Sequence record: PZ452578.1
Origin: a phage
Direction: 5' to 3' (one strand)
DNA length: 64,000 nt
Translations under genes and position numbers: made by a program
The notes under the pieces: model-generated
Databases searched by the model: none
What the model saw: the letters and a program-made list of their open reading frames with translations, nothing else
Told to the model about the DNA's origin: nothing
Part shown: piece by piece, positions 9,391-57,741 of the stretch
How positions within the stretch are numbered: position 1 is the stretch's first letter
Layout of the letters: every line of letters starts with the position of its first letter

Positions 9391-11202
9391 GCTCATCCAT
9401 TCTTTACGAAGGTCAGCATTATCTCCCATGAGCATTTCAAAAAGCTCTTTCCAGTTCTCAGGAAGTTTAACAACATCATATACTGGATTTTGAATCATCT
9501 CACGATATTCAGATTTTTCCAAAGAGCCAAGTCCCTTAATATAACGGATACTATGTTTAGGTAGAGCATCTTTAGCACTCTCATATTCAGCGACTGTATA
9601 AAACCATTCTTGTTTTTTACCGACCTGAGCGATGATTACAGGAGTTTTGACAAAGCGAATTCGTCCTTGCTCAAACAATTCTGGCCAATTACTAAAAAAT
9701 CCGAGCAGAGAAGGATAAATGCTTCCTAAACCATCATGGTCAGCATCAGTCATAATAGCAATATTATGATAATTCAAGTTTTCAGCTTTTTCACCTAGAA
9801 CTAAACCCGTGATTGCGCAAATATCAAACAGTTCTTTGTTTTTAAGCATATCAGCATATGACATACCCCAACTGTTGAGAACTTTACCACGCAATGGATA
9901 ACCACCATGAAGTTCTTTATCACGAACATCAATAAGATATCCGATAGCAGAATCACCCTCAGTCAAGAAAAGAGTAGTGTCAGCATCTTTACCACAAAGA
10001 TTCGCTTTAATATGTTTATGAACCTTAGCTTTAGAAGCCTTTTTAGCTGCTTTAGTTTCTGCTGCTTTTTCTGCTGCCAATTTACGAGCTAATGCTGCTT
10101 CAATAATTGGCATCAAAATTGCTTCATTATTTAGAATAGCGCGTGAAATCTTTTTAGCATCAAGTTGAATATGACTACGGATTTCACCAAATGGAGAAGT
10201 CAAACGCTCTTTAGTTTGAGAATCAAATCGCATGTTTTTCATATCACGAACAAACATAACGATAGTCAAACATTCTTTGACACGTGCTTTAGTTACATCA
10301 ATTTTGAACTTACGTTTGATTTGTGGAATAAGGTCTTCACAAATATCATCCATAACACAGTCAATGTGATGGCCACCATTCTTAGTGTGAATGTTATTCA
10401 CATAAGTTAATTGACGAAATCCATCCGGTGAACGACCAACCGCAATAGAACAATTTTCTTGTTCTTGAACAATAGCATGTTCATCATACTGTCGTGCATA
10501 TTTCTTAAAATTGCCCTGAACCTTTTTACCATTAAAGGTAAATTGAATATCAGGATAAACAACAGCAAGTGTCTGGAGACGATCCAGTGTAATGTCAAGA
10601 TAAACTTGGGACAGCTCATTAGTTTCAAATGACATAAAATCAGGAATGAAAGTAACACGAGTTCCTTTCCATTTTCCAGGAATATCTTCCCATGATTTAT
10701 TTTCCATGCCATTTGAACAACGAACTACAATATTATTTTGACCATCACCAGTTTCACCGACAAACATCACAGAAAAAATGTTTGTCAAACTAGAACCAAC
10801 ACCATTCATACCACCGGTGACGCGTTCTTTATCATCACCGAAGTTACCACCTGCTTTTGGAATAGTCCACGCAGCAACAGGACCAGGAATTTCTTCACCT
10901 GTAGGTGTTTTAACCATCGCCTGTGGAATACCGCGACCGTTATCTTCAACTGTTACCTGATTATTTTTAATAGTAACATTAATTTTATTTGCGAATTTAA
11001 ACTTAGTACGAATACCTTCATCTACTGAGTTATCAATAATTTCATCAATAAGCTTAACAAGACCAGGTACATACTGAACACTTTCCCATTTACCAAACAG
11101 AAAGCGCTCATGCATTTCATTAGCAGAAGAGCCAATATACATGCCGCTACGCTTTTTGATATGTTCAATATCGCTCAGAATTTTAATTTCATTCTTAATC
11201 AT
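9385..11202 (-). CDS. 39: DNA topoisomerase II large subunit gp39 (GyrB-like), uninterrupted 39/60 fusion form
   Basis: ORF track; ATG at 11202 gives 605 aa; GHKL ATPase N-terminus MIKNEIKILSDIEHIKKRSGMYIGSS. Confidence 0.95.
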   Translation of the reverse strand: MIKNEIKILSDIEHIKKRSGMYIGSSANEMHERFLFGKWESVQYVPGLVKLIDEIIDNSVDEGIRTKFKFANKINVTIKNNQVTVEDNGRGIPQAMVKTPTGEEIPGPVAAWTIPKAGGNFGDDKERVTGGMNGVGSSLTNIFSVMFVGETGDGQNNIVVRCSNGMENKSWEDIPGKWKGTRVTFIPDFMSFETNELSQVYLDITLDRLQTLAVVYPDIQFTFNGKKVQGNFKKYARQYDEHAIVQEQENCSIAVGRSPDGFRQLTYVNNIHTKNGGHHIDCVMDDICEDLIPQIKRKFKIDVTKARVKECLTIVMFVRDMKNMRFDSQTKERLTSPFGEIRSHIQLDAKKISRAILNNEAILMPIIEAALARKLAAEKAAETKAAKKASKAKVHKHIKANLCGKDADTTLFLTEGDSAIGYLIDVRDKELHGGYPLRGKVLNSWGMSYADMLKNKELFDICAITGLVLGEKAENLNYHNIAIMTDADHDGLGSIYPSLLGFFSNWPELFEQGRIRFVKTPVIIAQVGKKQEWFYTVAEYESAKDALPKHSIRYIKGLGSLEKSEYREMIQNPVYDVVKLPENWKELFEMLMGDNADLRKEWMSQ

Positions 11203-11911: not shown

Positions 11912-12088
11912 TTATCCCTTAAGTAAGTCGTAAAATCCGCCATTCACATGCTTAGGAGCAGAAGCCCGACGAGTAGACAAACGATGACATTTAGGGCAAA
12001 CATCATTTTCTCGTTCAGAAATCTTTTTAATTTTTTCATATTCATGCCCGCAATCTTCAGATTGGCATTTATAATCATACATTGGCAT
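11912..12088 (-). CDS. FmdB-like zinc-ribbon protein (58 aa, two CxxC pairs)
   Basis: Own translation MPMYDYKCQSEDCGHEYEKIKKISERENDVCPKCHRL...; below ORF-track cutoff. Confidence 0.5.
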   Translation of the reverse strand: MPMYDYKCQSEDCGHEYEKIKKISERENDVCPKCHRLSTRRASAPKHVNGGFYDLLKG

Positions 12089-12090
12089 AA

Positions 12091-12510
12091 TTATTCCTTA
12101 AAATGTGCTTTCAACATCTGATACAAGGACCATGCCTGTTCATTATTTTCAATAGTAACTTTCATTACCGGGAATTCTGTGAAATCTTCTATTTGTTCTT
12201 GCTCTTCCTGCTCTTGTTCTTTAGCATCCTGATATGGATTTTCAACTTCATCAAAGAACCCAGCTTCGTTAGTAGAAAGCCAGATAAAGTTTTCGTCAAG
12301 GATATCACCATGTGTTGCATATCCAACTGTGCCAGTAGATGTCACAATTTTAGTAGGACGACCAAGATAGTCAACATCTAAAATTTTAAAAGGATGCATA
12401 CCTAAACGGCGTGCATAGATTCCGTTATCAGTATGGTCTTTAATAAAATTTTCTTGAGCCTGTTTATTTTTAAATTGATACCATTTATTAACTTCAAATT
12501 TAATAGCCAT
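12091..12510 (-). CDS. hypothetical protein (139 aa)
   Basis: ORF track. Confidence 0.65.
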
Positions 12511-16194: not shown

Positions 16195-17514
16195 TCACAC
16201 ATAAAACACATCATAACGACCACGGGTAACACCAACATAAAGAAGTTGTTGGGCCAATTCAGCATCTGCATAATGAATACAAGGCGTATAAATGAAAGCA
16301 CGGTCTACAGACATACCCTGAGCTTTATGGAATGTTGATGCAGGAAGTGCTTTCACTTTACTAAACTGTGATTTAGCATCCCAAAAATCACTCCATGGAG
16401 CTTTTCCGCCTTTGTTCCAATTTTTATAAGTTTCTGCCGTTTTACCTAAAAATAGGTTAAACTTATATAGCTCTTCATCAGATGAAATTATTTTAATCTT
16501 TTCACGATAATATTCATCATCGCCATAAGTTTCTACTGTTAAATCCCAATGACGAATTAGATATTCTCCAGGAACACCACGAGCTTTAACAAACGTTGAT
16601 GTATACTCTGCTTCTATAATACGAACTAATTGTCCGTTATTAAAAATAATTTCTGACACAGGCTTTCCATCAATTTTATATGTTTTAATTAATGGTTCCT
16701 GCATTACAATAATTTCACCGACAATAAAATCTTTATCAGTTTCAAAAATCTTTTTACGAATAATGCTATTTAACTTGTCAACAGATTTATTCGTAAATGC
16801 CATTACGCGATTTTCAAACAAATCATCTAGAGATTTGACGATTGAAAAATAATTTACCATAAAATCGCGTAAAGCGGTATCACCAGTAAATCCACGTACT
16901 CCATGCCCGTCAACAACTTTATCATAAATCCACTTACCGTTACGAACGTCAGTAGCTACATCAATAATAGGAGCATTACTACGTTTAACTTCAGTGAGTT
17001 CACACTGATAAAAATCTTTATGTGTAAAGAATGGACTGATATAAGCAGTGTTTTCTCCTGGGTCAACAGGTCTAATTTGCTTATTATCACCTATTCCAAT
17101 TATAGTACACCACGGCGGGATAGTTGAAAGCAGAATTTTAAATAGCTTTCTATCATACATTGACACTTCGTCGCAGATTAATACCCTACATTTAGCTAAA
17201 TCTGGTACTTCCTTCTGCTCAAAGAGGACATTTTCTTCATATGTTACTGGGTTAATTTTAAGAATACTATGAATAGTACTCGCTTCTTTCCCCGACAGTT
17301 TTGAAAGAATCTTTTTAGCTGCATGTGTAGGAGCTGCTAAAATAATACCAGTTTCACCCGTAGATATTAAAGCTTCAATGATGAATTTAGTAAGAGTAGT
17401 CTTACCGGTACCAGCAGGTCCATTAATAGTTACATGATGTTTCTTTTCTTTAATAGCCTTCATAACAATGTTAAAGGCATTTTTCTGGCCTTCGGTCAAA
17501 TCATCAAATGTCAT
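16195..17514 (-). CDS. dda: Dda DNA helicase (SF1)
   Basis: ORF track 439 aa; Walker A GPAGTGKT; matches T4 Dda length. Confidence 0.9.
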   Translation of the reverse strand: MTFDDLTEGQKNAFNIVMKAIKEKKHHVTINGPAGTGKTTLTKFIIEALISTGETGIILAAPTHAAKKILSKLSGKEASTIHSILKINPVTYEENVLFEQKEVPDLAKCRVLICDEVSMYDRKLFKILLSTIPPWCTIIGIGDNKQIRPVDPGENTAYISPFFTHKDFYQCELTEVKRSNAPIIDVATDVRNGKWIYDKVVDGHGVRGFTGDTALRDFMVNYFSIVKSLDDLFENRVMAFTNKSVDKLNSIIRKKIFETDKDFIVGEIIVMQEPLIKTYKIDGKPVSEIIFNNGQLVRIIEAEYTSTFVKARGVPGEYLIRHWDLTVETYGDDEYYREKIKIISSDEELYKFNLFLGKTAETYKNWNKGGKAPWSDFWDAKSQFSKVKALPASTFHKAQGMSVDRAFIYTPCIHYADAELAQQLLYVGVTRGRYDVFYV

Positions 17515-17823: not shown

Positions 17824-18570
17824 TTATCCTCGGATAAGTTTAAAAATTGAACAATTCAGCGGATATCCTCTTTTCAGTTTAAGTTTATCAATAAAAGACA
17901 AGTTTTGATACCGCTCTACACCTTGAATAATTTTATCACACATATCATATTGCATTTCTGCTTCTGACAACTTTTTCACAGTTTTCCAATCCGAGCCTTT
18001 AAGAAGAACGTTCAATTTAACAACTTCAGCGCCTTCTGCTATACGAGAACCATCAATACGAGCTTTAAGTGCTATAATTCTTAGCTTAATGTCAGAGGTC
18101 TGTTTTGATTTAGAAAGCTGAGAAATGTGTTCAATTCGGTTTTCACGTTTTTTCTGTATAGCTTTAATTTGATTATAAGTCTTTTTGATTTTAGCCCATT
18201 TCTTTTCATCTAAATTTAGTTTATGAACTTTTTTCGCAGATGAACGACCAATTCGCAAAGCAAACAAATCACGTTTTTCAATTAACTCCTCTAAAGTATA
18301 ATCAGAACGAAATGTATTATACTTTTTCTTTACTGCAATAACATTCCCTTTAATGTATCCAACGTTATTATCAAAACGTTCTAATGATAATTTCTCTCCT
18401 TCAATACGATTATCAAAAGGTTCTCCCGAGTAAGCACAAACTTTCTGATCTAAAATGTTCTTAATGTAATTGAAGTCTAAGTTAAAATCTTTAGAACGTC
18501 TTTTTGCAGATGCCTGAGTATGCTCTAAACGACGTTTAATTTTACGAATTTGGTTATTAGACAGCTTCAT
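17824..18570 (-). CDS. srd: Srd-position protein (248 aa), putative sigma-70-related decoy
   Basis: ORF track; assignment by position between dda and modA and size only. Confidence 0.55.
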   Translation of the reverse strand: MKLSNNQIRKIKRRLEHTQASAKRRSKDFNLDFNYIKNILDQKVCAYSGEPFDNRIEGEKLSLERFDNNVGYIKGNVIAVKKKYNTFRSDYTLEELIEKRDLFALRIGRSSAKKVHKLNLDEKKWAKIKKTYNQIKAIQKKRENRIEHISQLSKSKQTSDIKLRIIALKARIDGSRIAEGAEVVKLNVLLKGSDWKTVKKLSEAEMQYDMCDKIIQGVERYQNLSFIDKLKLKRGYPLNCSIFKLIRG

Positions 18571-18606
18571 ATTTTTCTCACATCTTACGGACGGTTAACT
18601 ACTTAT

Positions 18607-18645
18607 ACTATAACATTTTTACTTTAACTTGTAAACAACTTTATG
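18607..18645 (-). promoter_or_regulatory. T4-type early promoter (GTTTAC / TGtTATAGT)
   Basis: Plus actata 18607-18612, gtaaac 18631-18636. Confidence 0.6.
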
Positions 18646-18651
18646 TAAAAA

Positions 18652-18676
18652 TGCTTTAAAAATTTCATGGTATAAT
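18652..18676 (+). promoter_or_regulatory. Plus-strand MotA-box (TGCTTTA) + 12 bp + extended -10 (TGgTATAAT), antisense to modA
   Basis: Plus strand aaTGCTTTAaaaatttcaTGgTATAATg; no plus-strand ORF downstream. Confidence 0.3.
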
Positions 18677-18693
18677 GAATCTAAGTCCTTCCA

Positions 18694-19296
18694 TTATAGA
18701 TTAAATCCTTCAAAATCAAGAGTATAGATAGTGTATGTTGAATACTTTTTGTACTCATATCTATCTGCAATTCTAAATACACTTCCAGCTGGTATCATTA
18801 CTTCTTGTTCATCTGAAACTAATTCCATATTACGATAACGATGGCTATCCGGAAACTTAAAGTTTGGATTGTATTCTTTACAGCGTAGAGCTTTTATAGC
18901 ATACTCCTGGAAATTGAATACCATAGGAGCTTTGAATTCAAAAATAACTTGTGTGTTATACTCTAAACCGGAAGCAAAATGTAGAGCTATATTTTTATCA
19001 TATGAAGCTGATACTACTTTATCAAATGTAATAATATCAATTCCTTGATTTAATATTTGTTTAGTCTCAACTGGAACACCTCTCCAAAGAGGTTTATCGT
19101 TTGGAACCAAACGAGATTTGATTATTTCATTTAACCAAGTATGGTCATCTGGTTTGTTGGTAATACAATGAATTAAAAGTTCAATTTCAGATAAATTAAA
19201 CCCTTCAGAAAGTAATTCTTCACGAATAGAAGCACGCACCGATGCATCCATTGATTTTATTTTAAAATCTTTTAGTTGCATTACTGAGTATTTCAT
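18694..19296 (-). CDS. modA: ModA ADP-ribosyltransferase
   Basis: ORF track 200 aa; matches T4 ModA length and position. Confidence 0.8.
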   Translation of the reverse strand: MKYSVMQLKDFKIKSMDASVRASIREELLSEGFNLSEIELLIHCITNKPDDHTWLNEIIKSRLVPNDKPLWRGVPVETKQILNQGIDIITFDKVVSASYDKNIALHFASGLEYNTQVIFEFKAPMVFNFQEYAIKALRCKEYNPNFKFPDSHRYRNMELVSDEQEVMIPAGSVFRIADRYEYKKYSTYTIYTLDFEGFNL

Positions 19297-19916
19297 TCAA
19301 CTACCTCAATATCATAAACTTTAAATGTTCCAAATGAATCGTGTAATTTTTCTTTTGAAATAGAAGTTATTTTATACTTTCCAATTGGAATCATCCATTC
19401 TTGTTCATGCACAATCATCATTAAGTTATCAGTACGCTCTGAATCTAATCCATCAGTATCTTCATACGTGTACTTAAACTCAGTATTAGGAGAAGAAAGT
19501 ATAATATCGCTGATATGGTCAGAGTAATTAAAAGCTTTATCAGTTTTTAAACGAAATATTGTTTCAGTGAAATATTCAGCATAAGAAAAAGAACACGCTG
19601 TATGCAAACTAGTAGTAAATGAATCTACCCTGTTCGTTGAAAACACTTCTCCAACCTGTAAATCTTTAATAAGTTCTTTTGTCGATTTTGATATACCACG
19701 ATATAACTGATATGGCGATTTAGTTAAATGCTTTTTAATGATTTCATTTAAATGCTTATGAAGAGCTTCATTCTTTTTAGCTTCCATACATTGCCAAAGA
19801 ACAGACTGTTCAAAGTCAGTAAATTTTTCACAGACCTTTTTATACATATCATATTGAAAATCAACGCTTTCAGCTTTTATAGATAACTGTTCAACATCTG
19901 CAGGATTAATAATCAT
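19293..19916 (-). CDS. modB: ModB ADP-ribosyltransferase
   Basis: ORF track 207 aa; matches T4 ModB length; overlaps modA start. Confidence 0.8.
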   Translation of the reverse strand: MIINPADVEQLSIKAESVDFQYDMYKKVCEKFTDFEQSVLWQCMEAKKNEALHKHLNEIIKKHLTKSPYQLYRGISKSTKELIKDLQVGEVFSTNRVDSFTTSLHTACSFSYAEYFTETIFRLKTDKAFNYSDHISDIILSSPNTEFKYTYEDTDGLDSERTDNLMMIVHEQEWMIPIGKYKITSISKEKLHDSFGTFKVYDIEVVE

Positions 19917-19942
19917 GATAGCCTCCGTATACTTCAGAAGCT

Positions 19943-19980
19943 ATCATATCATCGTTAGAAAGGAAAGTAAACAACTTTTT
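19943..19980 (-). promoter_or_regulatory. T4-type early promoter (GTTTAC / TGaTATGAT) for modB-modA
   Basis: Plus atcata 19943-19948, gtaaac 19967-19972. Confidence 0.65.
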
Positions 19981-22071: not shown

Positions 22072-22102
22072 AATGAAAAAAGGACTCCCGAAGGAGTCCT
22101 TG
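22072..22102 (-). terminator. Intrinsic terminator after soc (CUUCGG hairpin + U-run)
   Basis: aaggactcc-cgaa-ggagtcctt 22080-22101 with A-run 22075-22080 on plus. Confidence 0.7.
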
Positions 22103-56386: not shown

Positions 56387-57301
56387 TTAAGATTTAAGTA
56401 AATCAACAATTTTAATTAACTTTTCACGCTCAGATTTAGCTTTACTACTCAGTCCAGATAGTCTGAAAATTTCATCATCATATTGTTGAATAGAAATATT
56501 CAGCTCTTCAATCTGTTTATTAAAATAATCAATTTGTTCAGAATGTTTTTCGTTACTACGAAATGGTACAGGTTTTGTAGGCAATTTAGTTGAATTGGAT
56601 TCATCCGGGCGATAAATTAAAATACAACTTGAACCAATCGGACATTTAGCACCAGATGAATATTCTAACGTTCCAGCTTCTTTTAAAACTTCAAAAGCTA
56701 AACAGAGATGATGCCCCATATTGACATAATCTGTAGAGTGAGCTCTGACATAATAATCATCTCCACGAGTACTAAATTTAAAGCATTTAAGGTCTTCTGT
56801 ATTATTAGTTTTAAAAATCATTTGTTTATCTAGACCTTTAGCTAATCGAGCGCCTAATGCTAATAATCGTCGTTGATTTTCCCACAAATCCGCAATCATT
56901 TGGTCAAATGATAATTTTGGCATTAGTCGACCATAAAGGTCATATCCTTTATTATAATTACGAAGGATTTCACTCGCGTTAATACGAGACAACGCTCCAA
57001 TTTTATTAAGGGCTTTCATAATACGATTAGATAAACTCATTCCAGACCCGTTTGTTCGCCGTAAATGTTTTTCTAATCCAAATCCAATATCAACTTTAAA
57101 TTTATCTAAAATTTCAGCATGAACATCTCTGTCAATAACATTCAAATCCAAAGTTGGGTTAAATCTATGAAAAAATTTATCTGGCTCTCCACGACGAAGT
57201 ACAGTCCATTCATTCATCATTTTTTTATTAACTAAAGATTTAATTACTGCATTGACATTATTAATTGCTACTGACATATTTTCCTCACTCAATTTTACCA
57301 A
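56387..57301 (-). CDS. paralog family member 4 (304 aa)
   Basis: ORF track. Confidence 0.65.
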   Translation of the reverse strand: MVKLSEENMSVAINNVNAVIKSLVNKKMMNEWTVLRRGEPDKFFHRFNPTLDLNVIDRDVHAEILDKFKVDIGFGLEKHLRRTNGSGMSLSNRIMKALNKIGALSRINASEILRNYNKGYDLYGRLMPKLSFDQMIADLWENQRRLLALGARLAKGLDKQMIFKTNNTEDLKCFKFSTRGDDYYVRAHSTDYVNMGHHLCLAFEVLKEAGTLEYSSGAKCPIGSSCILIYRPDESNSTKLPTKPVPFRSNEKHSEQIDYFNKQIEELNISIQQYDDEIFRLSGLSSKAKSEREKLIKIVDLLKS

Positions 57302-57686
57302 TTACGCGGAATAAGATTGAACAGACTATATAAGTACCACATATAGATTGAACTAATGCCATTCCAAAGAACCAAACAATATTATCAAACAGTGTCTGTT
57401 TTACGTCGAAAGGACGTAAACTTACAATAATATTATCACCTTTTTCTATTGAAGAATACATCTCTGGGGAAATATATTCACTAAATCTATAACCGTCTTT
57501 GAGTTCATATACGGCAATAAACGATAAACTAGACCCCTTTCCTTGTGTTCCTGTAATAGTATTAACTACAGTAACATCATAATCTTTATAATGCATATAA
57601 TCATTAATTGCGTAATAACCATATGCAACTACTACACATAAACAGCATATCAATAAATTCAATCTTTTAATTATCAACTGTTTCAT
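57285..57686 (-). CDS. membrane protein (133 aa)
   Basis: ORF track; N- and C-terminal hydrophobic segments. Confidence 0.6.
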   Translation of the reverse strand: MKQLIIKRLNLLICCLCVVVAYGYYAINDYMHYKDYDVTVVNTITGTQGKGSSLSFIAVYELKDGYRFSEYISPEMYSSIEKGDNIIVSLRPFDVKQTLFDNIVWFFGMALVQSICGTYIVCSILFRVIGKIE

Positions 57687-57715: not shown

Positions 57716-57738
57716 ATTATACCATCCTTGGTATAAAG
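57716..57738 (-). promoter_or_regulatory. Candidate MotA-dependent middle promoter (cGCTTTA, 12 bp, TATAAT)
   Basis: Reverse complement reads CGCTTTAtaccaaggatggTATAAT. Confidence 0.4.
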
Positions 57739-57741
57739 CGG

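Follow-up and report, generated by a model that had tools for sequence, protein, structure and literature searches.

The spacer between srd and modA in T4-like phages holds a site that, judging from its sequence and its conservation, is very probably a functional promoter facing the genes of the Mod ADP-ribosyltransferases (ADPRTs). The narrower reading, that this is a middle promoter dependent on MotA and AsiA whose product would be a non-coding transcript running antisense into modA, is given a probability of about 0.65. Middle transcription in T4 is a textbook system, and the catalogue of 58 promoters assembled for it is considered largely complete. Within T4 1–50 kb, however, the sequence closest to the consensus lies on the “wrong” strand and outside that catalogue, yet its position and orientation are kept across about a dozen genera. 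The site is thus an uncatalogued middle promoter, and its orientation and conservation take it beyond a routine promoter call.

The DNA analyzed, a stretch of 64,000 nucleotides from sequence record PZ452578.1 that is called the window throughout, is a segment of a Tequatrovirus genome with about 99% identity to T4 around the site. Here, the match to the middle promoter consensus, the distribution of the site among related phages, and its arrangement relative to neighboring genes and promoters are considered together with the functions that these features may allow.

The site and its neighborhood

Middle promoters combine a MotA box, (a/t)(a/t)(a/t)TGCTTtA, with a sigma70 −10 hexamer placed 12 ± 1 bp away, and about half of those in T4 also carry the TGn extension of the −10 element (PMC2988021). 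Read directly from the window, plus-strand positions 18650–18677 are aaTGCTTTAaaaatttcaTGgTATAATg, and the MotA box, 12-bp spacing, and extended −10 described in the first-pass annotation are present exactly as quoted there. The sequence aaaaaTGCTTTA agrees with the consensus (a/t)(a/t)(a/t)TGCTT(t/c)A near −30, and TGgTATAAT at 18668–18676 forms an extended −10 element without a −35. No sigma70 −35 hexamer is found 16–18 bp upstream of TATAAT, where the sequences are AAATGC, AAAATG, and AAAAAT, and a sigma70 promoter scan reported no plus-strand promoter at the site. Directly 3′ of TATAAT on the same strand the sequence continues as gaatctAAgtcc, with a start predicted at A18683, about 7 nt past the −10.

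The srd-modA spacer that contains the promoter is 123 bp long. Both flanking genes are on the minus strand, as is every surrounding gene for tens of kb, in agreement with what had been said of the neighborhood on first reading; the claim that no plus-strand open reading frame follows also holds, since no credible one lies downstream. The description “antisense to modA” is correct for direction, in that the promoter points into modA, but the promoter itself lies in the spacer and outside the gene. The further proposal of a real promoter giving RNA antisense to modA and modB is strongly backed by position and cross-genus conservation, with the transcript as its predicted product. Coordinates are collected in Table 1.

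Table 1. Positions in the window of the candidate antisense promoter, its predicted transcript, and neighboring features
Feature	Position	Strand	Description
motA	606–1241	−	211 aa; activator that recognizes the MotA box; Pfam MotA_activ E = 4.7e-61, MotCF E = 9.2e-67
dda	16195–17514	−	dda.1 also minus strand
srd	17824–18570	−	248 aa; other side of the spacer
srd early promoter (sigma70-type)	18607–18635	−	TTTACA 18635–18630, 17 bp, TG + TATAGT 18612–18607
MotA box	18647–18658	+	aaaaaTGCTTTA; core TGCTTTA 18652–18658; center about −30 from predicted start
Promoter spacer	18659–18670	+	12 nt; 3′-terminal TGg 18668–18670 is the extended −10 (TGn)
sigma70 −10 hexamer	18671–18676	+	TATAAT; 12 bp after the MotA box, within 12 ± 1 bp
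Post-(−10) region	18677–18684	+	gaatct, conserved pattern; predicted start A18683 or A18684
Predicted non-coding transcript	18683–19916	+	Antisense to modA, probably modB; predicted
modA	18694–19296	−	200 aa; RNA polymerase alpha ADP-ribosyltransferase; first gene the antisense RNA would cross
modB	19293–19916	−	207 aa; ADP-ribosyltransferase; upstream of modA, same operon

Strength of the match and likeness to gene-driving promoters

Matches of this quality are rarely expected by chance. Dinucleotide shuffles predict 0.05 matches to TGCTTYA-N11-13-TATAAT in the window, where three are present, and put the chance expectation at about 0.03 per strand per 64 kb; the antisense site is the sole plus-strand match. 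A weight matrix made up of two blocks and a spacing term was derived from 30 experimentally identified T4 middle promoters, namely those in Table 1 of PMC2988021 with start sites within T4 1–50 kb, with sequences taken from the T4 record. By this measure the antisense site scores 22.1 bits, compared with 5.5–20.2 for the 30 known promoters scored leave-one-out, and is the best position on either strand both of the window and of T4 1–50 kb. The plus-strand runners-up reach 13.7 bits in the window and 14.8 in T4 1–50 kb; on the minus strand, about 20 matches exceed the median of the known promoters.

The similarity to promoters that drive genes extends past the −10 hexamer. A continuation of the form TATAATG[G/A][A/T]TCT is common to sense-oriented, gene-driving middle promoters, with several examples per genome in relatives. 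T4 PnrdD, TGCTTCA-N13-TATAATgaatctg-A, whose mapped start lies 8 nt past the −10, has the same arrangement as the antisense site. In a scan of IMG/VR for TGCTTT-N12-15-TATAATGGTTCT, several such promoters per genome were found in VR26-like and Acinetobacter phages, many of the matches directly preceding start codons, so that the extended motif is a general feature of middle promoters and not exclusive to the antisense site. That gene-driving promoters share it argues against a sense-strand RNA element that only mimics a promoter. Elsewhere in the window, a minus-strand site at 57716–57740, which can be written as CGCTTTA-N12-TATAATggttctaagccc or CGCTTTA-N12-TGgTATAATggttctaagccc, scores 20.3 bits and has the same post-(−10) sequence; it lies 40 nt upstream of a 133-aa open reading frame (57285–57686).

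Conservation of the promoter

T4 itself carries the same site, differing by one spacer substitution and a 1-bp deletion upstream. A 61-nt core is present in 502 phage (Tequatrovirus) records, 498 of them with at least 95% identity. Among ten Tequatrovirus sequences, changes in the promoter are confined to spacer positions 18662 and 18667, and TATAAT is invariant in these as in all of the genus-level representatives.

Beyond the genus, overall similarity is soon lost while the promoter elements are retained. BLAST similarity to RB69-like and VR26-like phages ends about 28 nt upstream of srd, but the corresponding spacers carry, on the same strand, TGCTTTA-N13-TGtTATAATggttct in RB69 and CGCTTTT-N12-TATAATggttct in VR26. 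The comparison took in Tequatro-, Mosig-, Gapriver-, Dhaka-, Marfa-, Winkler-, Gelderland-, Jiaoda-, Kanagawa-, and Karamvirus, together with an unclassified IMG/VR contig and the Acinetobacter phage Minot (Hadassahvirus). The two blocks, at 12–14 bp spacing, are also found in Dhakavirus MX01, Marfavirus Marfa, Winklervirus X20, Gelderlandvirus STML-198, Jiaodavirus LilPanda, Kanagawavirus Entb_45, and Karamvirus PS49, as well as in the contig and in Minot. Across these roughly 12 genera GCTTT, the 12–14-bp spacing, and TATAATG are kept, while the spacer sequence and the flanks cannot be aligned. On the sequences compared, two boxes at fixed spacing around a free spacer sequence are the signature of a promoter.

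GCTTT and TATAATG are each found in all 12 representatives, an invariance that is partly a matter of ascertainment because the search patterns demanded GCTT and TAnnnT; a G at −13/−14 and the post-(−10) pattern G(G/A)(A/T)T(C/T)N-A/G are mostly retained. The strict pattern was found in 25 of 31 loci scanned for it, and each of these 25 has a single occurrence per 3–5 kb, counting both strands, at a constant syntenic place. An IMG/VR search for related loci added few relatives.

The distribution of the elements also bears on the activator. TGn is present in only 5 of the 12 representatives against 12 of 12 for the MotA box, from which MotA dependence is taken to be the conserved property. Homologues of MotA, which is encoded in the window (Table 1), occur in 1144 phage records, including Marfa and Klebsiella, Mosigvirus, and Acinetobacter phages. 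Krischvirus ECD7 has no copy of the motif in its modB-srd spacer, and its congener RB49 has neither MotA nor middle promoters (Nolan et al. 2006). No match to asiA was found within the 64-kb window with an approximate query sequence; T4, the bearer of the same site, encodes both MotA and AsiA (PMC2988021).

Other features of srd and its 5′ region were also noted. Immediately before the ribosome-binding site of srd, positions 18582–18594 read CCGTCCGTAAGAT on the minus strand. The motif CGTCCGTAAGA found there, in the 5′ UTR, is common to T4, RB69, VR26, and MX01; in LilPanda it lies inside the antisense-promoter spacer, and some Tequatrovirus isolates have a 7-nt deletion within it. In phage ZCEC15 (locus 1–560), srd is annotated as two pieces, 1–286 and 414–560, which suggests that the gene is disrupted or mis-called there.

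Previous predictions at the locus

The antisense site, whose predicted start falls at about T4 11,897, is missing from the 58 experimentally identified T4 middle promoters tabulated in PMC2988021, where the nearest entry, Pdda.1, starts at 11,138 on the opposite strand. The T4 GenBank record holds no promoter features. In phage fPS-65, the annotation gives only the equivalent minus-strand “predicted early promoter.” For RB69, Nolan et al. 2006 (Virol J 3:30) list in Additional file 4 a promoter “Pm:12081” at 12081–12122 on the plus strand, predicted with an HMM score of 7.9; the early promoter Pe:12088, predicted in Additional file 3 of the same paper, stands back to back with it. With its box at 12090 and −10 at 12110–12115, Pm:12081 is the exact positional orthologue of the site described here. 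It appeared as a low-score HMM prediction with a 1-bp insertion, and without discussion, a link to modA, or comparison across genera. The literature covered, outside which the key primary papers of 2003–2007 fall, yielded no mention of antisense transcription at modA or of an antisense middle promoter. According to a preprint on differential RNA sequencing (dRNA-seq) of T4 (bioRxiv 10.1101/2024.04.04.588121), 22 of 150 phage transcription starts are antisense, and the modA-side site may be among these 22.

Geometry of the locus

The promoter keeps a constant relation to the ADPRT gene. In the ten representatives that encode Mod proteins, the predicted start lies 6–40 nt past the stop codon of the last Mod-family ADPRT gene and faces that gene, with distances of 11 nt in the window (A18683 to the modA stop codon), 11 in VR26, 27 in RB69, 22 in Marfa, and 6 in Entb_45. 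In Marfa, dmd is inserted between the ADPRT gene and srd, and the promoter adjoins the ADPRT gene, away from srd.

The relation to the early promoter on the opposite strand takes more than one form. In the window, the srd early promoter and the antisense promoter are back to back, with 16 bp between the −35 element of the one and the MotA box of the other and predicted starts 83 bp apart; back-to-back starts 67–84 bp apart are found in Tequatro-, Mosig-, Gapriver-, Dhaka-, and Kanagawavirus. In X20, STML-198, and PS49 (Winkler-, Gelderland-, and Karamvirus), the two promoters are instead face to face, with predicted starts that coincide within 1 nt, and in LilPanda face-to-face starts are 31 nt apart. 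The promoters of X20, STML-198, and PS49 would be mutually exclusive because their predicted starts share the same base pair; the opposite-strand −10 hexamers of these convergent promoters are about 13 bp apart. The possibility that the boxes are an UP element of the srd promoter that happens to mimic a MotA box was rejected, since they track the ADPRT gene past dmd in Marfa and lie downstream of the srd promoter in three genera.

At the other end of the operon, the modB early promoter, TTTACT-17-TATGAT, is located at 19971–19943 on the minus strand. A hairpin with a 14-bp stem, TATGATAGCTTCTGAAGTATACGGAGGCTATCATG (19914–19948, minus strand), starts at the −10 of this promoter. Its pairing takes in both the ribosome-binding site (GGAGG) and the start codon of modB, and the mRNA would thus hide its own site of translation initiation within a 5′-terminal structure.

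The predicted transcript

With every gene for tens of kb encoded by the opposite strand, the simplest product of the promoter would be a non-coding RNA, antisense to modA and probably to modB as well. Its complementarity to the mod mRNA follows from geometry, given a start 11 nt beyond the modA stop codon. A hidden small gene was rejected as an explanation, no conserved open reading frame with a ribosome-binding site being found downstream of the promoter.

Little in the downstream sequence points to an RNA with defined ends. Rfam returned no family matches, only sub-threshold noise, and the loci compared share no intrinsic terminator in the antisense direction. In this phage, weak hairpin and T-tract sites occur at 19078–19093 and 19097–19114, about +410 to +430. 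The first strong hairpin that a long plus-strand transcript would encounter is at 22080–22101, where the T-tract is poor in the plus direction; this hairpin, which reads AAGGACTCC-TTCG-GGAGTCCTT on the minus strand, has a GC-rich stem of 9 perfectly paired bp, is followed by a T-run on that strand only, and is likely a strong terminator of early transcripts. A cis-antisense RNA unit defined by its own terminator or by conserved structure was accordingly not found at the mod locus.

A clean unit, of about 130 nt followed by a strong terminator, is seen solely in the Acinetobacter phage, where it precedes the upstream gene, one that does not encode a Mod ADPRT. In Acinetobacter T4-like phages, a cassette of a MotA-type promoter and the leader ACCGGTTCACCGCTCTAA(T/A)TTATATCT... 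stands before different genes in at least four copies per genome; those in one genome are at L060 3548, L064 2832(−), L065 4763(−), and L073 2303, with others in L049, L053, and L033. Near srd, the cassette is followed only by a GC-rich hairpin and strong terminator, making a stand-alone unit of about 130–170 nt. Orthology of the Acinetobacter site is uncertain because the promoter and leader form a multi-copy cassette that also precedes genes, and the combination of this cassette with a non-ADPRT upstream gene weakens a strictly “anti-ADPRT” reading.

A possible off-switch and the alternatives

How transcription toward modA might serve the phage can be considered from what is known of the target. 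ModA has been described as highly toxic to Escherichia coli, and the mechanism by which early genes are shut off was stated in a 2010 review to be unknown (PMC2988021). In the mechanism proposed here, the early proteins AsiA and MotA would remodel sigma70 about 1–3 min after infection, and RNA polymerase would then bind TGCTTTA and TATAAT and initiate at about A18683; in this phage, TGn may permit some firing independent of MotA. The product would be a non-coding RNA complementary to the modB-modA mRNA at its 3′ end and probably over much of the operon, while the polymerase making it would meet early modB-modA transcription head-on. Convergent transcription and sense/antisense pairing would thereby lower expression of the toxic ADPRTs at the early-to-middle transition, and polymerase on the antisense promoter would compete with the interleaved srd early promoter. 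Such promoter competition is likely because the footprint overlaps an early promoter, that of srd or dmd, in both architectures.

That the antisense promoter curtails mod expression is a tentative proposal suggested by its position. The broader form, in which antisense RNA, head-on collision, and early-promoter occlusion together end ModA and ModB production as an off-switch conserved across the Tevenvirinae, is possible to the same degree and considerably more doubtful than the existence of the promoter. An active promoter would be a concrete case of programmed antisense transcription in T4 and could explain how the phage, on passing from early to middle transcription, turns off ModA and ModB synthesis and perhaps the srd early promoter. 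If true, the off-switch would give T4-type phages their first described case of a regulatory antisense RNA that is both conserved and controlled by an activator, and would tie modification of the polymerase by feedback to the enzymes that carry it out. The intergenic location of the site makes a clean knockout possible.

The main rival holds that selection acts on the DNA rather than on the RNA, with binding at the promoter occluding or colliding with the srd early promoter (that of dmd in Marfa) and blocking read-through from mod, so that the site would be an early-to-middle promoter switch or insulator and the transcript a by-product. This is unlikely as the full explanation, although it is compatible with a role of the antisense RNA. 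It draws on the mutually exclusive open complexes expected in Winkler-, Gelderland-, and Karamvirus, on the 31-nt separation in LilPanda, on the T4-type arrangement, in which starts are 67–84 bp apart and the MotA box occupies −52 to −58 of the srd promoter, the position of an UP element, and on the comparisons with Rfam and of terminators, in which no conserved RNA 3′ end or structure was found. Distance to the sense promoter is variable, however, at 0, 31, about 80, 124, or 271 bp, and what is conserved is nearness to the ADPRT stop codon and orientation into the ADPRT gene; in Marfa, a whole gene stands between the antisense promoter and the srd promoter.

A silent or near-neutral look-alike, for example what is left of a mobile promoter cassette that plays no part in infection, is improbable. 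Its absence from the curated 58 T4 middle promoters despite systematic searches would fit such a relic, as would the multi-copy promoter cassettes of Acinetobacter phages, and T4 does have consensus-like middle promoters that are silent in vivo (PMC2988021). Those silent promoters have GATT boxes, though, and the box here is the canonical GCTT; moreover, that about 12 genera with unalignable spacers should all retain the two boxes, the distance between them, and the placement and direction of the site is hard to account for without selection, and the chance expectation of about 0.03 per strand per 64 kb is low. It is very improbable that the conserved blocks instead serve the sense strand, as a signal for 3′-end formation or processing of the mod mRNA or as an element of the srd 5′ UTR that merely resembles a promoter. 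In Winkler-, Gelderland-, Karam-, and Jiaodavirus, the DNA encoding the srd 5′ UTR does include the blocks, no intrinsic terminator is found on the minus strand between modA and srd, and a discrete modB-modA transcript served as control RNA in a published assay. Nevertheless, their position upstream of the srd promoter in T4 and downstream of it in others is inconsistent with a single RNA role, neither an Rfam match nor conserved pairing was found, and two boxes at fixed spacing around a free spacer, which give the top score with a matrix trained on sense promoters and recur as the same extended motif ahead of ordinary genes elsewhere in these genomes, are what a promoter presents. Equally improbable is a role in priming replication, in which a middle promoter and an A+T-rich unwinding element would make an R-loop origin. 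Both oriF and oriG consist of a MotA-dependent promoter with an unwinding element downstream, and the first 100 nt downstream of the present site are 72% A+T, at the 89th percentile of 100-nt windows. This enrichment is modest in a genome of 66% A+T, with no evident unwinding element, and T4 origins are mapped elsewhere in published maps and in the T4 record, with none reported at about 11.9 kb. A primer for oriA was likewise rejected; oriA is annotated at T4 16,763 by gene 56, about 4.9 kb off and on the minus strand.

Comparison with known systems

A promoter read antisense into modA remains the preferred explanation, and its closest counterparts are the T4 middle promoters that depend on MotA and AsiA through sigma appropriation. 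PuvsX, PnrdD (P49.1), and PmobB have the same box, spacing, and TATAAT, no −35, and an optional TGn. Unlike the listed T4 middle promoters, the antisense site runs counter to every gene for tens of kb, has no open reading frame after it, and stands outside the list of 58, its promoter activity being predicted. In T4 oriF (uvsY) and oriG (gene 34), a MotA-dependent promoter also points into an A+T-rich stretch without an immediate gene, as here, but no origin is mapped at the modA site, where the nearest annotated one is oriA.

Another relevant paradigm comes from type I toxin-antitoxin systems. In txpA/RatA and bsrG/SR4 of Bacillus subtilis, a cis-antisense RNA overlaps the 3′ end of the toxin mRNA. 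The modA-side RNA differs from these in having no conserved discrete small RNA, terminator, or structure, and its target is an enzyme of the lytic program rather than an addiction module, with the effect on the mRNA being predicted. The modA-side promoter would, moreover, be controlled by the developmental activator MotA instead of being constitutive. The arrangement is nonetheless the same in outline, with a convergent promoter just past the stop codon of a toxic gene and an RNA that would pair with the 3′ end of its mRNA.
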